A stretch of DNA of 31,458 nucleotides from a virus (lineage: Duplodnaviria > Heunggongvirae > Uroviricota > Caudoviricetes): the IMG/VR virus record IMGVR_UViG_2534681704_000006, one strand, 5' to 3'. Every line of letters begins with the position of its first letter. The stretch's first letter is position 1. The notes beneath the pieces were generated by a model, which saw only the letters and a list, made by a program, of their open reading frames with translations, was not told the DNA's origin and did not search any database. A program made the position numbers and the translations under genes. Shown one piece after another: positions 17,914 to 25,829 of the stretch.

Positions 17914-19371
17914 ATGAATACATCTCATGTAAGAGTTGTTACTCATATGTGTGGGTTCCTGGTTTGGCTCTATAGTCTTTCAATGTTGCCACCAATGGTT
18001 GTAGCATTGTTTTATAAAGAAAAAAGCCTGTTCGTTTTCTTTATAACTTTCGTTATATTTTTTTGCATTGGTGGCGGAGCGTGGTATACAACTAAGAAAT
18101 CTGGCATTCAATTACGTACCCGTGATGGGTTTATTATAATTGTAATGTTTTGGATTTTGTTTTCTGTTATTAGTGCATTCCCTTTATGGATTGACTCAGA
18201 ACTTAATTTAACGTTCATTGATGCTCTGTTTGAAGGGGTTTCTGGAATAACAACAACAGGAGCAACTGTAATTGATGATGTTAGTTCATTACCTCGGGCA
18301 TATTTGTACTATCGGTCACAGTTAAATTTTATAGGTGGTTTAGGAGTTATTGTTCTGGCGGTTGCTGTATTGCCATTATTGGGTATTGGTGGTACAAAGC
18401 TTTATCAGTCAGAAATGCCGGGGCCATTTAAGGATGACAAACTCACTCCCCGCCTGGCCGATACGTCACGGACACTGTGGATAACTTATTCTTTATTAGG
18501 TATTGCTTGTATTGTCTGTTATAGACTTGCAGGAATGCCTTTGTTTGATGCTATTTGTCACGGGATTTCCACAGTTTCGCTTGGTGGTTTCTCAACTCAT
18601 AGCGAGAGTATCGGATATTTTAATAACTATTTGGTTGAGCTGGTGGCTGGTTCTTTTTCCCTGCTATCGGCTTTCAACTTCACTCTTTGGTATATTGTTA
18701 TTAGCAGGAAAACGATAAAACCTTTAATCAGAGATATTGAACTTCGTTTCTTTCTGTTAATAGCCTTAGGGGTGATCATTGTTACCTCTTTCCAGGTCTG
18801 GCATATAGGTATGTATGACTTGCATGGAAGTTTTATTCATTCGTTTTTTCTTGCCAGCTCCATGCTCACTGATAATGGTTTAGCTACGCAGGATTATGCA
18901 AACTGGCCCACGCACACGATAGTGTTTTTGCTGTCGTCAAGTTTCTTTGGGGGATGTATAGGTTCAACTTGTGGTGGAATTAAGTCACTTCGATTTCTTA
19001 TACTTTTCAAACAAAGCAAACACGAGATAAATCAGCTTTCTCATCCCAGAGCGTTGTTGAGTGTAAATGTAGGAGGGAAGATAGTTACAGATCGTGTAAT
19101 GAGGTCTGTATGGAGTTTCTTTTTTCTTTATACTCTCTTCACGGTGTTTTTTATACTGGTGTTAAATGGTATGGGATATGATTTTCTTACATCATTTGCA
19201 ACAGTGGCTGCATGTATTAATAATATGGGATTAGGTTTTGGGGCTACTGCATCGTCATTCGGAGTGCTTAATGACATTGCAAAATATTTAATGTGCATAG
19301 CTATGATTCTTGGTCGCCTTGAAATTTATCCTGTTATTATATTGTTTTCAGGTTTTTTTTGGCGCTCCTAA
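17914..19371 (+). CDS. trkG: TrkG potassium uptake protein (TrkH family)
   Basis: 485-aa multi-pass membrane protein from MNTSHVRVVTHMCGFLVWLYSLSMLPPMVVALFYKEK...; matches recalled Rac-prophage TrkG; AT-rich. Confidence 0.92.
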   Translation: MNTSHVRVVTHMCGFLVWLYSLSMLPPMVVALFYKEKSLFVFFITFVIFFCIGGGAWYTTKKSGIQLRTRDGFIIIVMFWILFSVISAFPLWIDSELNLTFIDALFEGVSGITTTGATVIDDVSSLPRAYLYYRSQLNFIGGLGVIVLAVAVLPLLGIGGTKLYQSEMPGPFKDDKLTPRLADTSRTLWITYSLLGIACIVCYRLAGMPLFDAICHGISTVSLGGFSTHSESIGYFNNYLVELVAGSFSLLSAFNFTLWYIVISRKTIKPLIRDIELRFFLLIALGVIIVTSFQVWHIGMYDLHGSFIHSFFLASSMLTDNGLATQDYANWPTHTIVFLLSSSFFGGCIGSTCGGIKSLRFLILFKQSKHEINQLSHPRALLSVNVGGKIVTDRVMRSVWSFFFLYTLFTVFFILVLNGMGYDFLTSFATVAACINNMGLGFGATASSFGVLNDIAKYLMCIAMILGRLEIYPVIILFSGFFWRS

Positions 19372-19508
19372 TATATGGCTGATTTATAATTGTGAGTTTA
19401 ATATTATATTGACTCACTCATTGATCCAATACCTAACTTTACCAGCAACACCTCCGCCCCCAGTAGCACTGGCTGCTGGGGTGCGTTTTATTCATAAAGC
19501 AAGGCTGT

Positions 19509-20297
19509 ATGAGCGAGAAATTAAAGATAGTCTATCGCCCATTACAAGAATTGTCACCGTATGCGCACAACGCCAGGACGCACAGTACTGAGCAGGTGGC
19601 ACAACTGGTAGAAAGTATTAAGCAATTCGGCTGGACTAATCCGGTGCTGATTGACGAAAAGGGCGAAATTATTGCGGGTCACGGTCGTGTTATGGCGGCT
19701 GAAATGCTCAAAATGGATTCTGTTCCGGTCATTGTTCTGTCTGGCCTGACGGATGAGCAGAAAAAGGCGTACCGCCTGGCAGATAATCGCCTACCGATGA
19801 ATGCTGGCTGGGATGAAGATCTGTTGCGGATGGAGCTGTCGGACCTAATCAATGCTGATTTTGATGTCTCCCTGACAGGCTTCGGCCCGACAGAAATTGA
19901 TGAACTGTTGACGGATGTTTTGCCCGGTACAGGAAATAAGGAGGAGCCGTATACGACGAAAATTGATACGCCTGTTTATGAGCCGTCGGGCGGTAAACCG
20001 GATATCAGTGAACTGTACGACGATACGAAAACTCAGGAGCTGATCAGCCGGATACGTTCGGCGTCCCTTGAGCCTGATATTGAGAAATTCCTCCTGTGTG
20101 CGGCAGAACGTCACACGGTGTTTAATTTCAGCAGAATTGCGGACTATTACGCTCATGCCCCCGCTGAAATTCAGTGCCTTTTCGAGGAGTCGGCGCTGGT
20201 GATCATTGATTATCAGCAGGCTATTGAAAATGGATTTGTCCGAATGACGCAGCGCATGGTGGCGATCATGCATAGCGGGGAGGAGGAATATGCGTGA
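19509..20297 (+). CDS. ParB-like nuclease domain protein (YnaK-like)
   Basis: 262-aa ORF; N-terminus (YRPLQELSPYAHNARTHS...IIAGHGRVMAA) has ParB/Srx-type motifs; resembles recalled Rac YnaK but full length here. Confidence 0.75.
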   Translation: MSEKLKIVYRPLQELSPYAHNARTHSTEQVAQLVESIKQFGWTNPVLIDEKGEIIAGHGRVMAAEMLKMDSVPVIVLSGLTDEQKKAYRLADNRLPMNAGWDEDLLRMELSDLINADFDVSLTGFGPTEIDELLTDVLPGTGNKEEPYTTKIDTPVYEPSGGKPDISELYDDTKTQELISRIRSASLEPDIEKFLLCAAERHTVFNFSRIADYYAHAPAEIQCLFEESALVIIDYQQAIENGFVRMTQRMVAIMHSGEEEYA

Positions 20298-21153
20298 TGA
20301 TTTTTGCGCCTTTATTCTGACTCACGGGCGACCGGACAAAGTTCTGACTTACCGGACGTTGCGTCGTGCTGGCTATACCGGGAAAATTTTTATCGTTGTT
20401 GATGATGAAGATAAGACACGGCATCAGTACATGGCTGAATTTGGTGAACAGGTGCTGGTATTTTCCAAAGCAGATATTGCCAGTCGTTTTGACGAAGCCG
20501 ATAATTTTGGTGACCGCCGCTCAATTTTTTACGCCCGTAATGCCTGTTTCGACCTGGCAAAACTGGTCGGGTGTAAATACTTCATTCAGCTCGATGATGA
20601 TTATCACGAGTTCCAGTTTCGGGTGGATCGCAACTATGACCAGGCCTATTTCCCGATAAGGAAACTGGATGCGATCCTTTCTGAAATGCTGGCGTATTAC
20701 GAATCAATACCCGCGCTTTCCATCGCTATGTCGCAGGGCGGGGATTTTCTTGGTGACAATGGCGGCCATGCTTCGTGGGTGAAACGCAAGGCAATGAACA
20801 GCTTTATCTGTTCGGTTGATCGACCGTTCTCATTCATGGGGCGCATTAACGAGGATGTGAATACGTACACGAATCTCGGTCGCCGTGGTGAATTGTTTAT
20901 GACGATCGGTGCTGTCCAGTTAGGGCAGAAACAGACGTAGAAAAACAGCGGCGGAATGACCGAGCTGTATCTGGATTCCGGGACCTACGTTAAAAGTTTT
21001 TATTCCGTCATGTATGCGCCGTCGTGCGTAAAAATCTCACTGATGGGCGCCAGCCATAAACGCATTCACCATCAGGTCACCTGGAACAACGCTGCAGTAA
21101 AAATCCTTCACGAAAAATACAGGAAGAAGACACCCTGCATATTAATGGGGTGA
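20290..21153 (+). pseudogene. YdaY-like gene interrupted by a single in-frame TAG (20938..20940); possible DxD-type transferase
   Basis: ORFs 20290..20940 and 20956..21153 are in the same frame, separated only by TAG plus 5 codons; 8-nt overlap with upstream ParB-like gene; contains DDD motifs (VVDDEDK, QLDDDYHEF). Confidence 0.5.
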
Positions 21154-21156
21154 CAA

Positions 21157-21408
21157 ATGATTCCGTATTCGAAAGTCGAGTCTCTGGCAGCGTGCCGGAT
21201 GACTGCACAACAAATCGCTGACGTACTGGATGTTGATCTGAACCGACTGAAAGAAAATCGGGAAGCAATGACAAATTTTTACGCGTCCATCCGTAAGGGC
21301 AGAGCGAAAGGTGAAGCCGAGCTACGGGCGGCATTGTTTAAGCTTGCCAGAAAAGGGGATGCCTTTGCCCTGCGCGAACTACTCAGGGTGGATAAAAATC
21401 AGGACTAA
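21157..21408 (+). CDS. small hypothetical protein upstream of terminase
   Basis: 83-aa ORF tightly packed between the interrupted gene and terS; no recognised family. Confidence 0.45.
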   Translation: MIPYSKVESLAACRMTAQQIADVLDVDLNRLKENREAMTNFYASIRKGRAKGEAELRAALFKLARKGDAFALRELLRVDKNQD

Positions 21409-21411
21409 CTG

Positions 21412-22506
21412 ATGAGCAGACCGGACTGGGGGGCGTTGCAGCAGGAGTATATTGCTGAATACACCCGCTCCGGTATATCTCCGGTGGCATGGTGTGAAGC
21501 AAGGGGACTGAATTACGCAACAGCCCGTCGTTACATCAAAAAACCTCCGAAAAATGCGCAGACAGAAATGCGCAAAACTGCGCAAAAAAGTGCGCAGAAA
21601 AAATCTGCGCAGACTGCACAAAAGCGGAACGGAAAATCTCAGGAAAAAAAGCCAGTATCCGATGCGTACCTGAATGAGGGCGATGCGGAAGAAATTTCGT
21701 TCTGTCCCGATGAATTCGGCGTTTCTGACCAGCAGGCGAAATTCGCAATGCTGGTTGCCCAGGGGAAAAAACTCGTTGAGGCATATCGCCTGGCAGGATA
21801 CGAGTCAGAGGGGAATGCGGCCTACGTAACCGCCAGCCAGCTCCTAAGAAATCCTAAGGTTTTTCGTGCTATCAGCTACTTCCGCAATCAGTACCAGAAA
21901 CGCTATACCGCAGACCTGGATTTACTGGTGAGTCAGTTGATGGCCATTGTCCAGGCCGACCCCAATCAGTTGGCACAATTTCGCCGTGTTAACTGCCGTT
22001 ATTGCTGGGGCGAGAATCATCACTACCAGTGGCGCGATATAGCAGAATTCGATAAGGCAGCGGCGCAGGCCTCCAGAGATGGCAAACCCGAGCCGGAATA
22101 TGGTGGCCTTGGCTTTGTTGATAACGCCATACCCAATCCGGACTGCCCGAAGTGCTGCGGTGAGGGAACGGGGCAGCTTTATATGGCTGATACCACTCTG
22201 CTTGATGGGGATGCGCGGCAATTATATGCAGGGGCAAAGCTCGGAAAATTTGGTGTTGAGATCCTGCTGGAGGATAAGGCTGCCGCCCGGCGTGAATTGT
22301 TGCGTTTGCTTGCTGCTGGCGGGGCTTTATGTGCAGATAAGCGGCTACAGGAACTGGAAATTGAACGGCGCAGAATGGAAAACCAGAAGCTGCGCAAAGA
22401 GATCGAAACGGTGGAGGATAATGAACATCCCCAACCTGTTGCGATCAATATTAATGTGGTTGATGCCAGAGTAAGGAGTGATGAAGATGATCTCTCCGAC
22501 GCTTAA
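21412..22506 (+). CDS. terS: terminase small subunit (TerS)
   Basis: 364-aa ORF directly upstream of and overlapping the terL-like ORF; N-terminal HTH-like segment and central terminase-small-like region (KFAMLVAQGKKLVEAYRLAGYESEGNAAYVTASQLLRNPKV). Confidence 0.65.
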   Translation: MSRPDWGALQQEYIAEYTRSGISPVAWCEARGLNYATARRYIKKPPKNAQTEMRKTAQKSAQKKSAQTAQKRNGKSQEKKPVSDAYLNEGDAEEISFCPDEFGVSDQQAKFAMLVAQGKKLVEAYRLAGYESEGNAAYVTASQLLRNPKVFRAISYFRNQYQKRYTADLDLLVSQLMAIVQADPNQLAQFRRVNCRYCWGENHHYQWRDIAEFDKAAAQASRDGKPEPEYGGLGFVDNAIPNPDCPKCCGEGTGQLYMADTTLLDGDARQLYAGAKLGKFGVEILLEDKAAARRELLRLLAAGGALCADKRLQELEIERRRMENQKLRKEIETVEDNEHPQPVAININVVDARVRSDEDDLSDA

Positions 22507-23281
22507 TGTGCCTCAGGCGCGATTTCTTTCAATGCCCCACAAATTTAAAGCCTATGTCGCTGGTTTTGGCTCGGGTAAAACATGGATTGGGTGTGGTGGC
22601 ATATGCAAGGGGATTTGGGAACATCCTGGTATAAATCAGGGATATTTTGCGCCAACGTATCCCCAAATTCGCGATATTTTTTACCCTACAGTGGAAGAAG
22701 TTGCTGCTGACTGGGGATTGAATGTAAAAATTAATGAGGGAAATAAAGAGGTTCATTTTTATTACGGACGTCAGTATCGGGGAACCACTATCTGCAGATC
22801 GATGGAGAAGCCGCAAACGATCGTCGGTTTCAAAATTGGTAATGCGCTGGTGGATGAACTGGACATTTTGCCGAAGGAAAAAGCCAGAACAGCGTGGCGC
22901 AAGATAATTGCGCGTATGCGTTATAAGGTTGATGGACTTCGCAACGGTATTGACGTTACAACCACGCCGGAAGGATTCAAATTTGTCTACGAGCAGTTTG
23001 TTAAAGCCGTGCGTGAAAAAACAGAGCTGGCCTCACTGTATGGTCTGGTGCAGGCATCTACTTTCGATAATGAAAAGAACCTGCCAGCAGATTACATTCC
23101 TTCGCTTCTTGAGTCATACCCTCCAGAGCTGATTAAAGCCTATCTTCGAGGACAGTTTACTAACCTGACAAGTGGTACTGTTTACCATCAGTTTGACCGG
23201 AAACTGAATAATTGCGAAGAAGTGGAGCAGCCAACCGCGCTGCTATTAACAGCATGTTTACCAGGCTCTCCGGAGAGCTGA
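22478..23281 (+). pseudogene. terL: terminase large subunit, N-terminal ATPase fragment only
   Basis: Walker A (VAGFGSGKTW) and Walker B (ALVDELD) motifs; ORF ends after 267 aa where the frame changes into a head-morphogenesis-like fragment; nuclease domain absent. Confidence 0.65.
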
Positions 23282-24000: not shown

Positions 24001-25829
24001 ATCCGGTCAGCGTGGAGGTTCAGTCCGTCACCGACGGCGTGAAGGTGAAAGTGAGCCGTGTTCCTGACGGCGTTGCCGGATACAGCGTGTGGGGGCTGAA
24101 GCTGCCGACGCTGCGCCAGCGCCTGTTCCGCTGTGTGAGTATCCGTGAGAACGACGACGGCACGTATGCCATCACTGCCGTGCAGCATGTGCCGGAAAAA
24201 GAGGCCATCGTGGATAACGGAGCGCACTTTGACGGCGACCAGAGCGGCACGGTGAATGGTGTCACGCCGCCAGCGGTGCAGCACCTGACCGCAGAAGTCA
24301 CCGCAGACAGTGGGGAGTATCAGGTGCTGGCGCGCTGGGACACGCCGAAGGTGGTGAAGGGTGTGAGCTTTATGCTTCGCCTGACCGTGGCCGCCGATGA
24401 CGGCAGTGAGCGGCTGGTCAGCACGGCCCGGACGACGGAAACCACTTACCGCTTCAGGCAGCTGGCGCTGGGGCGTTACACGCTGACGGTCCGGGCGGTA
24501 AATGCCCGGGGACAGCAGGGCGATCCGGCGTCGGTATCGTTCCGGATTGCCGCCCCGGCAGCGCCGTCGCGGATTGAGCTGACGCCGGGCTATTTTCAGA
24601 TAACTGCCACGCCGCATCTTGCGGTTTATGATCCGACGGTACAGTTTGAGTTCTGGTTCTCGGAAACGCGGATTACCGATATCAGGCAGGTTGAAACCAC
24701 AGCCCGCTACCTTGGCACGGGGCTGTACTGGATAGCCGCCAGTATCAATATCAAACCGGGCCATGATTATTACTTTTATATCCGCAGTGTGAACACCGTT
24801 GGCAAATCGGCATTCGTGGAGGCCGTCGGTCGGGCGAGCGATGATGCGGAAGGTTACCTGGATTTTTTCAAAGGCAAGATAACCGAATCCCATCTCGGTA
24901 AAGAGCTGCTGGAAAAAGTTGATCTGACGGAGGATAACGCCAGCAGACTGGATGAGTTTTCGAAAGAGTGGAAGGACGCTAACGATAAATGGAATGCCAT
25001 GTGGGGCGTCAAAATTGAGCAGACCAAAGACGGCAAACATTATGTCGCGGGTATTGGCCTCAGCATGGAGGACACGGAGGAAGGCAAGCTGAGCCAGTTT
25101 CTGGTTGCCGCTAACCGTATCGCGTTTATTGACCCGGCAAACGGGAATGAAACGCCGATGTTTGTGGCGCAGGGCAACCAGATATTCATGAACGACGTGT
25201 TCCTGAAGCGCCTGACAGCCCCCACCATTACCAGCGGTGGCAGTCCTCCGGTATTTTCCCTGACATCAGACGGAAAGCTGACCGCTAAAAATGCGGATAT
25301 CAGTGGTAGTGTGAATGCGAACTCAGGAACGCTCAACAATGTCACGATTAACCAGAACTGTACGATTAAGGGCATGCTGGAGGCGACCCAGGTCAGAGGG
25401 GATTTCGTTAAAGCTGTATCAAAAGCCTTCCCGAAAAAAGTCGGTACGTGGGGTAACACGGAAACACCAAACGGTACGGTTACAGTCACCATCAGCGATG
25501 ATCATAACTTTGACCGCCAGATTATTATTCCGCCCATTATTTTTAACGGTATAGCGTATGACGATCCGGGGAGCGGAAATAACCCAGGAGGCACGCGATA
25601 CACGGGTTATGGTTTTGAAGTTCGCAAAAACGGCGTATTAATCGCATCCAGAGAAACTAAAGGGGCCATTCCCGGTAGTTACAGTGCAGTTATTGATATG
25701 CCTAGTGGTGGTGGTAGCGTCACTCTGGAGTTTAAGATTTTCCAGAAAGGCAATCAGGGGGCAGGCAATATCACCGACTGTACGGTGATTGTGACCAAAA
25801 AAGCCGCTTCCGGCATCAGTATTCGTTGA
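24001..25829 (+). pseudogene. J: tail tip fibre / host specificity protein J, C-terminal half only
   Basis: From about 24001 the translation ([43 protein letters not shown]...) matches the C-terminal part of recalled lambda J; no N-terminal half upstream. Confidence 0.85.

Follow-up and report, generated by a model that had tools for sequence, protein, structure and literature searches.

A TGCGCA hexamer array in the small terminase gene of a Rac-type prophage as a candidate packaging recognition site

The window analysed here is a stretch of 31,458 nucleotides of viral DNA (Caudoviricetes; IMG/VR record IMGVR_UViG_2534681704_000006), and the part that concerns us is the late region of a defective Rac-type lambdoid prophage of Escherichia coli. 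It contains terS, the gene of the small terminase subunit TerS, and in the 5' part of this gene the palindromic hexamer TGCGCA is repeated as an array, just behind the codons of a putative DNA-binding domain. We propose that this array is the part of a packaging (pac) site that TerS recognizes. The features at the locus are the following, with lengths and residues given in amino acids (aa).

21412..22506, + strand: terS, 364 aa, Terminase_2 core with a Cys-rich insertion; the array lies at gene offsets 143-207
21412..21546, + strand: TerS N-terminal domain, aa 1-45, a predicted three-helix helix-turn-helix (HTH), the proposed reader of the hexamer
21555..21619, no strand assigned: hexamer array, five TGCGCA and one decayed copy with A-rich spacers, the proposed TerS recognition part of pac
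21555..21560, no strand assigned: TGCGCA copy 1, codons AAT GCG CAG (N-A-Q)
21569..21574, no strand assigned: TGCGCA copy 2, in another frame, ATG CGC AAA (M-R-K)
21579..21584, no strand assigned: TGCGCA copy 3 (T-A-Q)
21591..21596, no strand assigned: TGCGCA copy 4 (S-A-Q)
21606..21611, no strand assigned: TGCGCA copy 5 (S-A-Q)
21614..21619, no strand assigned: TGCACA, the decayed sixth copy, which is TGCGCA in many E. coli relatives

Exact copies of TGCGCA start at 21555, 21569, 21579, 21591 and 21606, at distances of 14, 10, 12 and 15 bp, and together with TGCACA at 21614 they make up 65 bp inside the 5' part of terS, exactly where a sequence-only reading of the window had placed them. Within 21540-21630 the letters run AAAAA TGCGCA GACAGAAA TGCGCA AAAC TGCGCA AAAAAG TGCGCA GAAAAAATC TGCGCA GAC TGCACA AAAG, and the peptide encoded across the array is KNAQTEMRKTAQKSAQKKSAQTAQK, the same Lys/Ala/Gln-rich stretch which that reading had given. 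The anomaly is the clustering and not the number of hexamers: the whole window holds 13 TGCGCA against 14.1 expected in shuffles. Five of these 13 fall within 57 bp. When 13 sites were placed at random 200,000 times, such a cluster never arose, and five copies within 70 bp are attained by no 6-mer of the window other than TGCGCA. The next TGCGCA lies 785 bp away from the array, which forms a single cluster.

The terS product matches Pfam Terminase_2 (E 1.9e-9) and PHROG 51, 'terminase small subunit', and the third helix of its N-terminal domain reads ATARRYIKK (aa 36-44). An AlphaFold2 model places N-terminal helices at residues 6-20, 24-30 and 35-38, with a predicted local distance difference test score (pLDDT) of 70-78, and the array codes for what is probably a disordered linker (aa 51-93, pLDDT below 50). 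This model is derived from a shallow alignment of 15 sequences and has a mean pLDDT of 50; its usable portions are the N-terminal helices and some of the core.

Hexamers, codons and the encoded linker

Four of the five copies lie in the frame xxT-GCG-CAR and encode X-Ala-Gln within the Lys/Ala/Gln-rich linker, and across lineages 75 of 100 copies share this Ala-Gln frame (frames 0/1/2 hold 5/20/75). This is what would be expected if the signal were at the protein level, a linker grown from a duplicated AQK-type unit with the hexamers as its by-product, which is the alternative that the sequence-only reading had named. However, copy 2 sits in another frame (ATG-CGC-AAA, Met-Arg-Lys), and the codons around the hexamers vary in a manner that a peptide repeat does not explain. 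Among E. coli variants, the codon ahead of copy 2 is ATG, CTG, GTG or TTG (M/L/V) with the hexamer unchanged, and the codon ahead of copy 5 is TCT, CCT, ACT or TTT (S/P/T/F) with its final T always kept; the codon ahead of Ala thus always ends in T, and its residue varies among N, T, S, P and F. In a resampling in which each peptide was held fixed and synonymous codons were drawn from the codon usage of the window (2000 resamples, counted per 204 nt), 0.73 TGCGCA are expected in the window against the 5 present. For 18 diverged lineages, 0.2-0.9 copies are expected against 3-8 present, and in 17 of them no resample attained the observed count.

The homologue from Serratia fonticola (L086) makes the same point at a greater distance. 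Its protein is 53% identical to that of the window overall and 76% in the N-terminal domain, and its five TGCGCA stand at the corresponding position, with first two gaps (14 and 10) equal to those of the window; these copies encode SAQ, MRN, AAQ, LRT and TAQ, so that the frames alternate between AQ and [ML]R and the peptide differs. A low-complexity peptide repeat does not fit these data: frames are mixed, the peptide is not kept and codon choice is constrained, and the linker, predicted to be disordered, drifts freely in sequence between lineages. The comparison of homologues, DNA motif against peptide, which had been put forward as the way to decide the matter, comes out clearly for DNA: frame, peptide, spacing and downstream core all vary. 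On this evidence the repeat acts at the level of DNA, and the protein-level explanation, already largely refuted, is extremely improbable; it was not borne out, as the hexamers are kept while frame and peptide change.

Many database proteins are frameshifted through the array region or truncated in it (49-79 aa; P0019-P0055, P0121-P0156). Frameshift-compensated variants were considered as proof that the peptide is dispensable and were dropped: in L273, the one case checked, the A-runs are each 1 nt short, as homopolymer sequencing errors typically leave them. The A5-A7 runs between the hexamers make terS prone to misannotation.

The third helix and its hexamer among relatives

The first 45 residues of TerS were searched in metagenomes, IMG/VR and phage records, which gave 246 loci with 110 distinct 5' regions. 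In 86 distinct regions the third helix reads ARRYIK, and the next 200 nt hold a median of 5 TGCGCA (range 1-8) and a median of 0 TGCGAA. After dereplication there are 30 such TGCGCA lineages (class A) with 1-9 copies and a median of 5; all except one carry 3-9. In 27 lineages the first copy stands at gene offset 137 or 143, and in the other three at 130, 144 and 158; relatives have 4-6 copies at the position of the window array. The extended consensus is AAA(C)TGCGCA(A/G)AA, with A-rich flanks. The helical spacing suggested by the sequence-only reading stands for the window, with its distances of 10-15 bp, but it does not extend to relatives: common spacings in class A are 7, 9, 10, 12, 14 and 15 bp, the range reaches 36 bp or more, and no fixed period is kept. 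In L241-L251, a second hexamer cluster lies 45-76 nt downstream.

The domain and the array travel as one module, which 883 of 5426 complete E. coli genomes (about one in six) carry and which is joined to at least four unrelated downstream TerS bodies:

Rac-type Cys-rich core
Classical P27-type Terminase_2 core, in Klebsiella phage ST974-OXA48phi18.2 and E. coli phage PHB10
'LKPQHEQFAQNIAQG' type
933W-type, in Stx phage GER2

A change in the third helix is accompanied by a change of the hexamer. In 19 distinct regions the helix reads AKRYIK (in full A-K-R-Y-I-K-[VIL]), and here there are 0 TGCGCA, 3-6 TGCGAA and 1-3 TTCGCA (class B). TGCGAA often stands within a 12-bp palindrome, TGCGAATTCGCA, at the position that the array has in class A; members include Yersinia phage vB_YenM_210.17 (L171), Providencia phage PSTCR3 (L173) and the metagenome loci L141-L167. 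The 933W-type helix, ARTRIKM, goes with four YGATCA at a 12-bp period. Two close pairs are informative. The domains of L136 and L141 are 86% identical and differ by R39K and K44V, with TGCGCA in the one and TGCGAA in the other; the window and L136, only 68% identical in the domain, both have TGCGCA. GER2 and 933W are 79% identical over aa 1-33 and differ in the helix (ARRYIKL versus ARTRIKM) and in the hexamer (TGCGCA versus GATCA). Judged by these sequences, the hexamer tracks the third helix and not overall relatedness.

Conversely, TerS proteins with a window-type core and an unrelated N-terminal HTH have different repeats in the equivalent linker-coding DNA. An Erwinia-type family has GGGGCA followed by inverted TGCCCC, kept across 17 IMG/VR loci, and the phage deposited as pPE4 has GTTTCCAC followed by GTGGAAAC behind a different N-terminal HTH.

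Several side observations belong to these relatives. The pPE4 record (L003, PP818812, 'Actinobacillus phage vB_Apl-pPE4') is attributed to Actinobacillus pleuropneumoniae, but its terS core DNA is about 91% identical to that of E. coli Rac-type prophages and its neighbouring genes are lambdoid and E. coli-like; the host label looks doubtful. In Rac-SA53 (L002, KU052037 24713..25741), an annotated 'gpO-terS fusion by deletion' breaks inside the hexamer array; copies 2-5 are kept, two are mutated and the N-terminal HTH, the proposed reader, is lost. The class B palindrome TGCGAATTCGCA contains an EcoRI site, and the three types of hexamer have cores (GATC, GCGC and GAATTC) that are classic methyltransferase or restriction sites. 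Taking record ends as a proxy for termini, none of the deposited class A and class B phage records begins at terS; the phi296 record breaks inside terS, although this phage is of the 933W type and the record note is ambiguous.

Known pac sites and competing explanations

It is well known that pac sites can lie inside terS and that the pac site in pacA of phage P1 is built of hexamer arrays, and the window array resembles the latter closely. Residues 6-79 of the window TerS match the PacA family phrog_1711 (E 1.4e-5, with a 103-aa N-terminal fragment as query). The 933W-type TerS profile phrog_370 is matched both by PacA (E 1.9e-4) and by the window domain (E 7.5e-18). In BLASTP, the window TerS and PacA are 34% identical over 35 aa (E 0.002), across the HTH and including LN..TARRY[IL][KR], and PacA residues 10-44 fall just below threshold for HTH_23 and HTH_28. 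By these profile and pairwise comparisons, the N-terminus of the window TerS is distantly homologous to that of PacA over its ~80 N-terminal residues only.

P1 pac is experimentally defined (PMC10028697, citing Sternberg and Coulby 1987, 1988; Skorupski et al. 1994). It has 4 + 3 hexamers around the cut with an IHF site between them, its cleavage is regulated by Dam methylation of GATC, its hexamers function as duplex DNA, and their synonymous mutation lowers packaging about 9-fold (PMC10028697). In the annotated P1 record we find TGATC[AG] at pacA offsets 193, 200, 212, 227 and 323, 335, 346, 374, in mixed frames, the two groups flanking the IHF site and the mapped cuts at ~277-283. The window shares with P1 several copies of one palindromic hexanucleotide in mixed frames, an array that directly follows a distantly homologous N-terminal HTH within the 5' part of the small-terminase gene, and the placement of this array in a linker-coding stretch. 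Unlike P1, its hexamer is TGCGCA instead of TGATCA/G, there is no GATC in 21540-21630 and no obvious methylation control, the 5-6 copies form one cluster of 65 bp rather than two groups flanking the cut, and the remainder of TerS, a Terminase_2 core, has no relationship to the PacA body. The IHF consensus WATCAANNNNTTR has three matches in the window, none within or near terS. Compared in this way, the window array corresponds in position and architecture to a single arm of P1 pac and is apparently read by a homologous domain.

A further parallel is Stx phage 933W, whose N-terminal domain is homologous (39% identity) and which has a four-hexamer array directly behind this domain. Its hexamer differs from that of the window: YGATCA, at a strict 12-bp period and with an (I/T)DH peptide repeat, is P1-like and carries Dam sites. 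In 933W (L169, NC_000924 28775..) and phi296 (L168), the array lies at gene offsets ~140-190 and encodes IDHEIDHKTDHEIDH, and one or two TGCGCA occur further downstream of it in 933W-type terS. We regard the 933W array, by its sequence and position, as a candidate pac site for Stx phages; in the literature searched we found no description of it as pac.

Other systems are similar in part. SPP1/SF6 pac (the pacL direct repeats boxA, boxB and boxC) also has short repeats amid A-rich runs at the start of terS, and its DNA is proposed to wrap round a ring of TerS HTH domains (PMC4737164, PMC9611059). The SPP1 repeats span the promoter and the gene start and show only moderate conservation, and in vitro the SF6 DNA-binding domain has little sequence specificity (PMC4737164, PMC9611059). 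By contrast, the window-type hexamer is exact and tracks the reader helix, and neither proteins nor sites are homologous. P22 and Sf6, temperate enterobacterial phages with headful packaging, likewise have their cis site inside the coding sequence of terS, but it is a single asymmetric site of ~22 bp in gene 3 (in P22, mid-gene) and not a palindromic array by the HTH segment (PMC9611059); the TerS family of P22 also differs.

Since the hexamers are kept across lineages and co-vary with an HTH related to PacA, whose proven pac shares the design, we consider that the window-type array is probably the element of a pac site that TerS recognizes, in a P1-like form that lacks Dam and IHF sites. The pac site of repeated short motifs inside terS that the sequence-only reading had suspected thus gains support from hexamer conservation, helix co-variation and the PacA-related domain. 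We infer from the comparison that TerS is the hexamer binder, that the cut is nearby and that the DNA is bent. In this mechanism, each N-terminal HTH of a TerS oligomer (aa 1-45, third helix ATARRYIKK) would contact one TGCGCA. The five or six hexamers, beginning 2-8 nt past the last codon of the domain and separated by A-tract spacers, would allow multivalent binding, probably with bending of the DNA; A-tracts favouring bending have been proposed for SPP1/SF6 pac DNA (PMC4737164). The TerS-bound array would then recruit TerL, the first cut would be made nearby and headful packaging would follow. The site lies in DNA coding for a linker predicted to be disordered, so that the DNA signal could dictate the peptide without hindrance. 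With less than 200 bp between them, reader and site could move jointly between TerS cores as a specificity cassette, and this closeness would hold them together through the mosaic exchanges that lambdoid phages typically undergo. The phages that use such an array would be headful-packaging temperate phages, Rac-type lambdoid prophages included. TerL of an intact relative is made up of Terminase_6N and 6C, which is compatible with headful packaging but is not proof of it.

Several points weigh against this interpretation. The evidence for a pac role is comparative throughout and based on sequence, and in the literature searched we found no paper that links TGCGCA to packaging. The array differs from P1 pac in being a single cluster without an IHF consensus or a methylation site. 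The structure model of the N-terminus is of moderate confidence, and sequence searches of solved structures with the N-terminal profile, full TerS and TerL gave nothing significant, the best hit being the HTH of an IS21-family transposase (E 0.12). Hexamers do mutate in E. coli prophages, many of them defective, and the commonest variant has TGTGCA at copy 2; between close relatives from E. coli, variation affects ~6 of the 36 hexamer columns and ~8 of the 30 spacer columns, a divergence too shallow to decide. The association of helix and hexamer may partly reflect physical linkage and common descent, and there are only about five independent types of reader and site. Lastly, palindromic hexamers also predict a stable mRNA fold.

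This fold is the basis of one of three further explanations. If the palindromic hexamers paired in terS mRNA or in single-stranded DNA, the hairpins could regulate terS translation or stability, and the RNA fold of 21540-21630 is indeed strong (-31.7 kcal/mol, z = -5.45 against shuffles, with copies 2:3, 4:5 and 1:6 paired). Arrays of self-complementary hexamers, however, score in this way automatically. No Rfam family matches, odd copy numbers (3, 5) are frequent, and a spacing of 7 nt leaves a loop of 1 nt. It is TGCGCA itself that is kept, with no compensatory pair changes and no conserved pairing partners, and class B uses the non-palindromic TGCGAA ~3:1 over its complement TTCGCA. An RNA model also does not predict co-variation with a protein helix, and the hexamers of P1 act as duplex DNA (PMC10028697). 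We regard a hairpin function as quite unlikely.

A binder other than TerS, such as the product of the small upstream ORF, a late-gene regulator or a host factor, might instead use the array to control the expression of terS and terL. The 83-aa ORF at 21157..21408 (+ strand) gives this idea some substance, since it matches another TerS family, phrog_309 (positions 145-218 of 319, E 2.5e-22), and TerS itself is a putative binder. Yet this ORF does not track the hexamer, because it is absent from 17 of the 30 TGCGCA lineages and present beside a GGGGCA array, and judged by this distribution it is not the reader. The genes that precede terS vary widely among carriers, and the N-terminal domain of TerS is the sole element that is always adjacent and co-varying; control by another binder is unlikely. 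The array might also be a recombination-prone junction or slippage product without function, hitch-hiking with the N-terminal module. It does stand exactly at the boundary between this module and the varying cores, the Rac-SA53 deletion fusion ends within it, and its copy number shifts by gain or loss of units in L066, L068 and L069. But in neutral DNA hexamers would not stay exact while frame, spacing and peptide change at 53-76% protein identity, nor would all copies be swapped together when the helix changes, which makes a functionless array very improbable.

The prophage and the meaning of the array

The gene order around the array is trkG, a ParB_N protein, a TET-associated/GREB1-like glycosyltransferase, the 83-aa ORF, terS and terL; the 83-aa ORF is found only in Rac-type lineages. 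The window is 99.98% identical to the intact prophage of strain MB30 as far as 23233. From there 2163 bp are missing relative to MB30, a stretch that takes in the nuclease domain of terL, the portal gene and the first part of the minor head gene, and the junction joins terL at codon ~250 to the middle of a Mu-F-like minor head gene. A second deletion junction, at 24006, leads from the minor head gene into a lambda J-like tail-tip gene. What is left of the large terminase gene is the following.

22478..23281, + strand: truncated terL, ATPase domain only, with the 2163-bp deletion junction at 23233

Because terL is truncated, the window prophage is unable to cut or package DNA at the array, and it cannot make heads. 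The array of the window is a relic, and any action of such an array takes place in intact relatives.

Two neighbouring genes are worth recording. The glycosyltransferase gene (20290..21153, + strand) has an in-frame nonsense change, CAG to TAG, at 20938, the sole difference from MB30 over 19001-23233, which splits it into ORFs of 216 and 65 aa; it corresponds to Pfam TAGT and to the PHROG 'beta-glucosyl-HMC-alpha-glucosyltransferase'. Adjoining it is the gene of the ParB_N protein (19509..20297, + strand; 262 aa), a ynaK homologue that matches the N-terminal part of the phage 'DNA methyltransferase' family phrog_498 (E 3.7e-51). Judging from these matches, the two genes could be the remnant of a DNA-modification module.

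Our literature searches found no TGCGCA arrays, no Rac-type pac site and no relation of helix and hexamer, although their coverage was incomplete and an earlier description is possible. How small terminases select their own DNA has been described as unclear and controversial, and the in vitro binding of the P22, Sf6 and SPP1/SF6 small terminases is weak or non-specific (PMC9611059). The array family offers exact, short and repeated sites together with natural switches of specificity, which makes the recognition of pac by TerS directly testable. It also provides a sequence-based prediction of pac for Rac-type, Klebsiella, Yersinia, Providencia and Stx phages, and flags a pac-like site in the 883 E. 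coli genomes that carry the module. Sites in defective prophages could serve a related phage in trans and drive the transduction of neighbouring chromosomal genes, and the array may be useful for phagemid and transduction tools, as P1 pac already is.

Beyond the array itself, we tentatively put forward a wider proposal, drawn from the co-variation described above and somewhat doubtful at present: the TerS HTH and its array may be a portable packaging-specificity cassette, in which the third helix, through one or two of its residues (R39/K39 with K44/V44; RY versus TR at 40-41), would choose TGCGCA, TGCGAA/TTCGCA or YGATCA, a design that P1, Stx phages and Rac-type prophages would have in common. 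If this code holds, packaging specificity would be predictable from sequence and could be re-engineered. It would also become predictable which superinfecting phage mobilizes which prophage relics and chromosomal regions.

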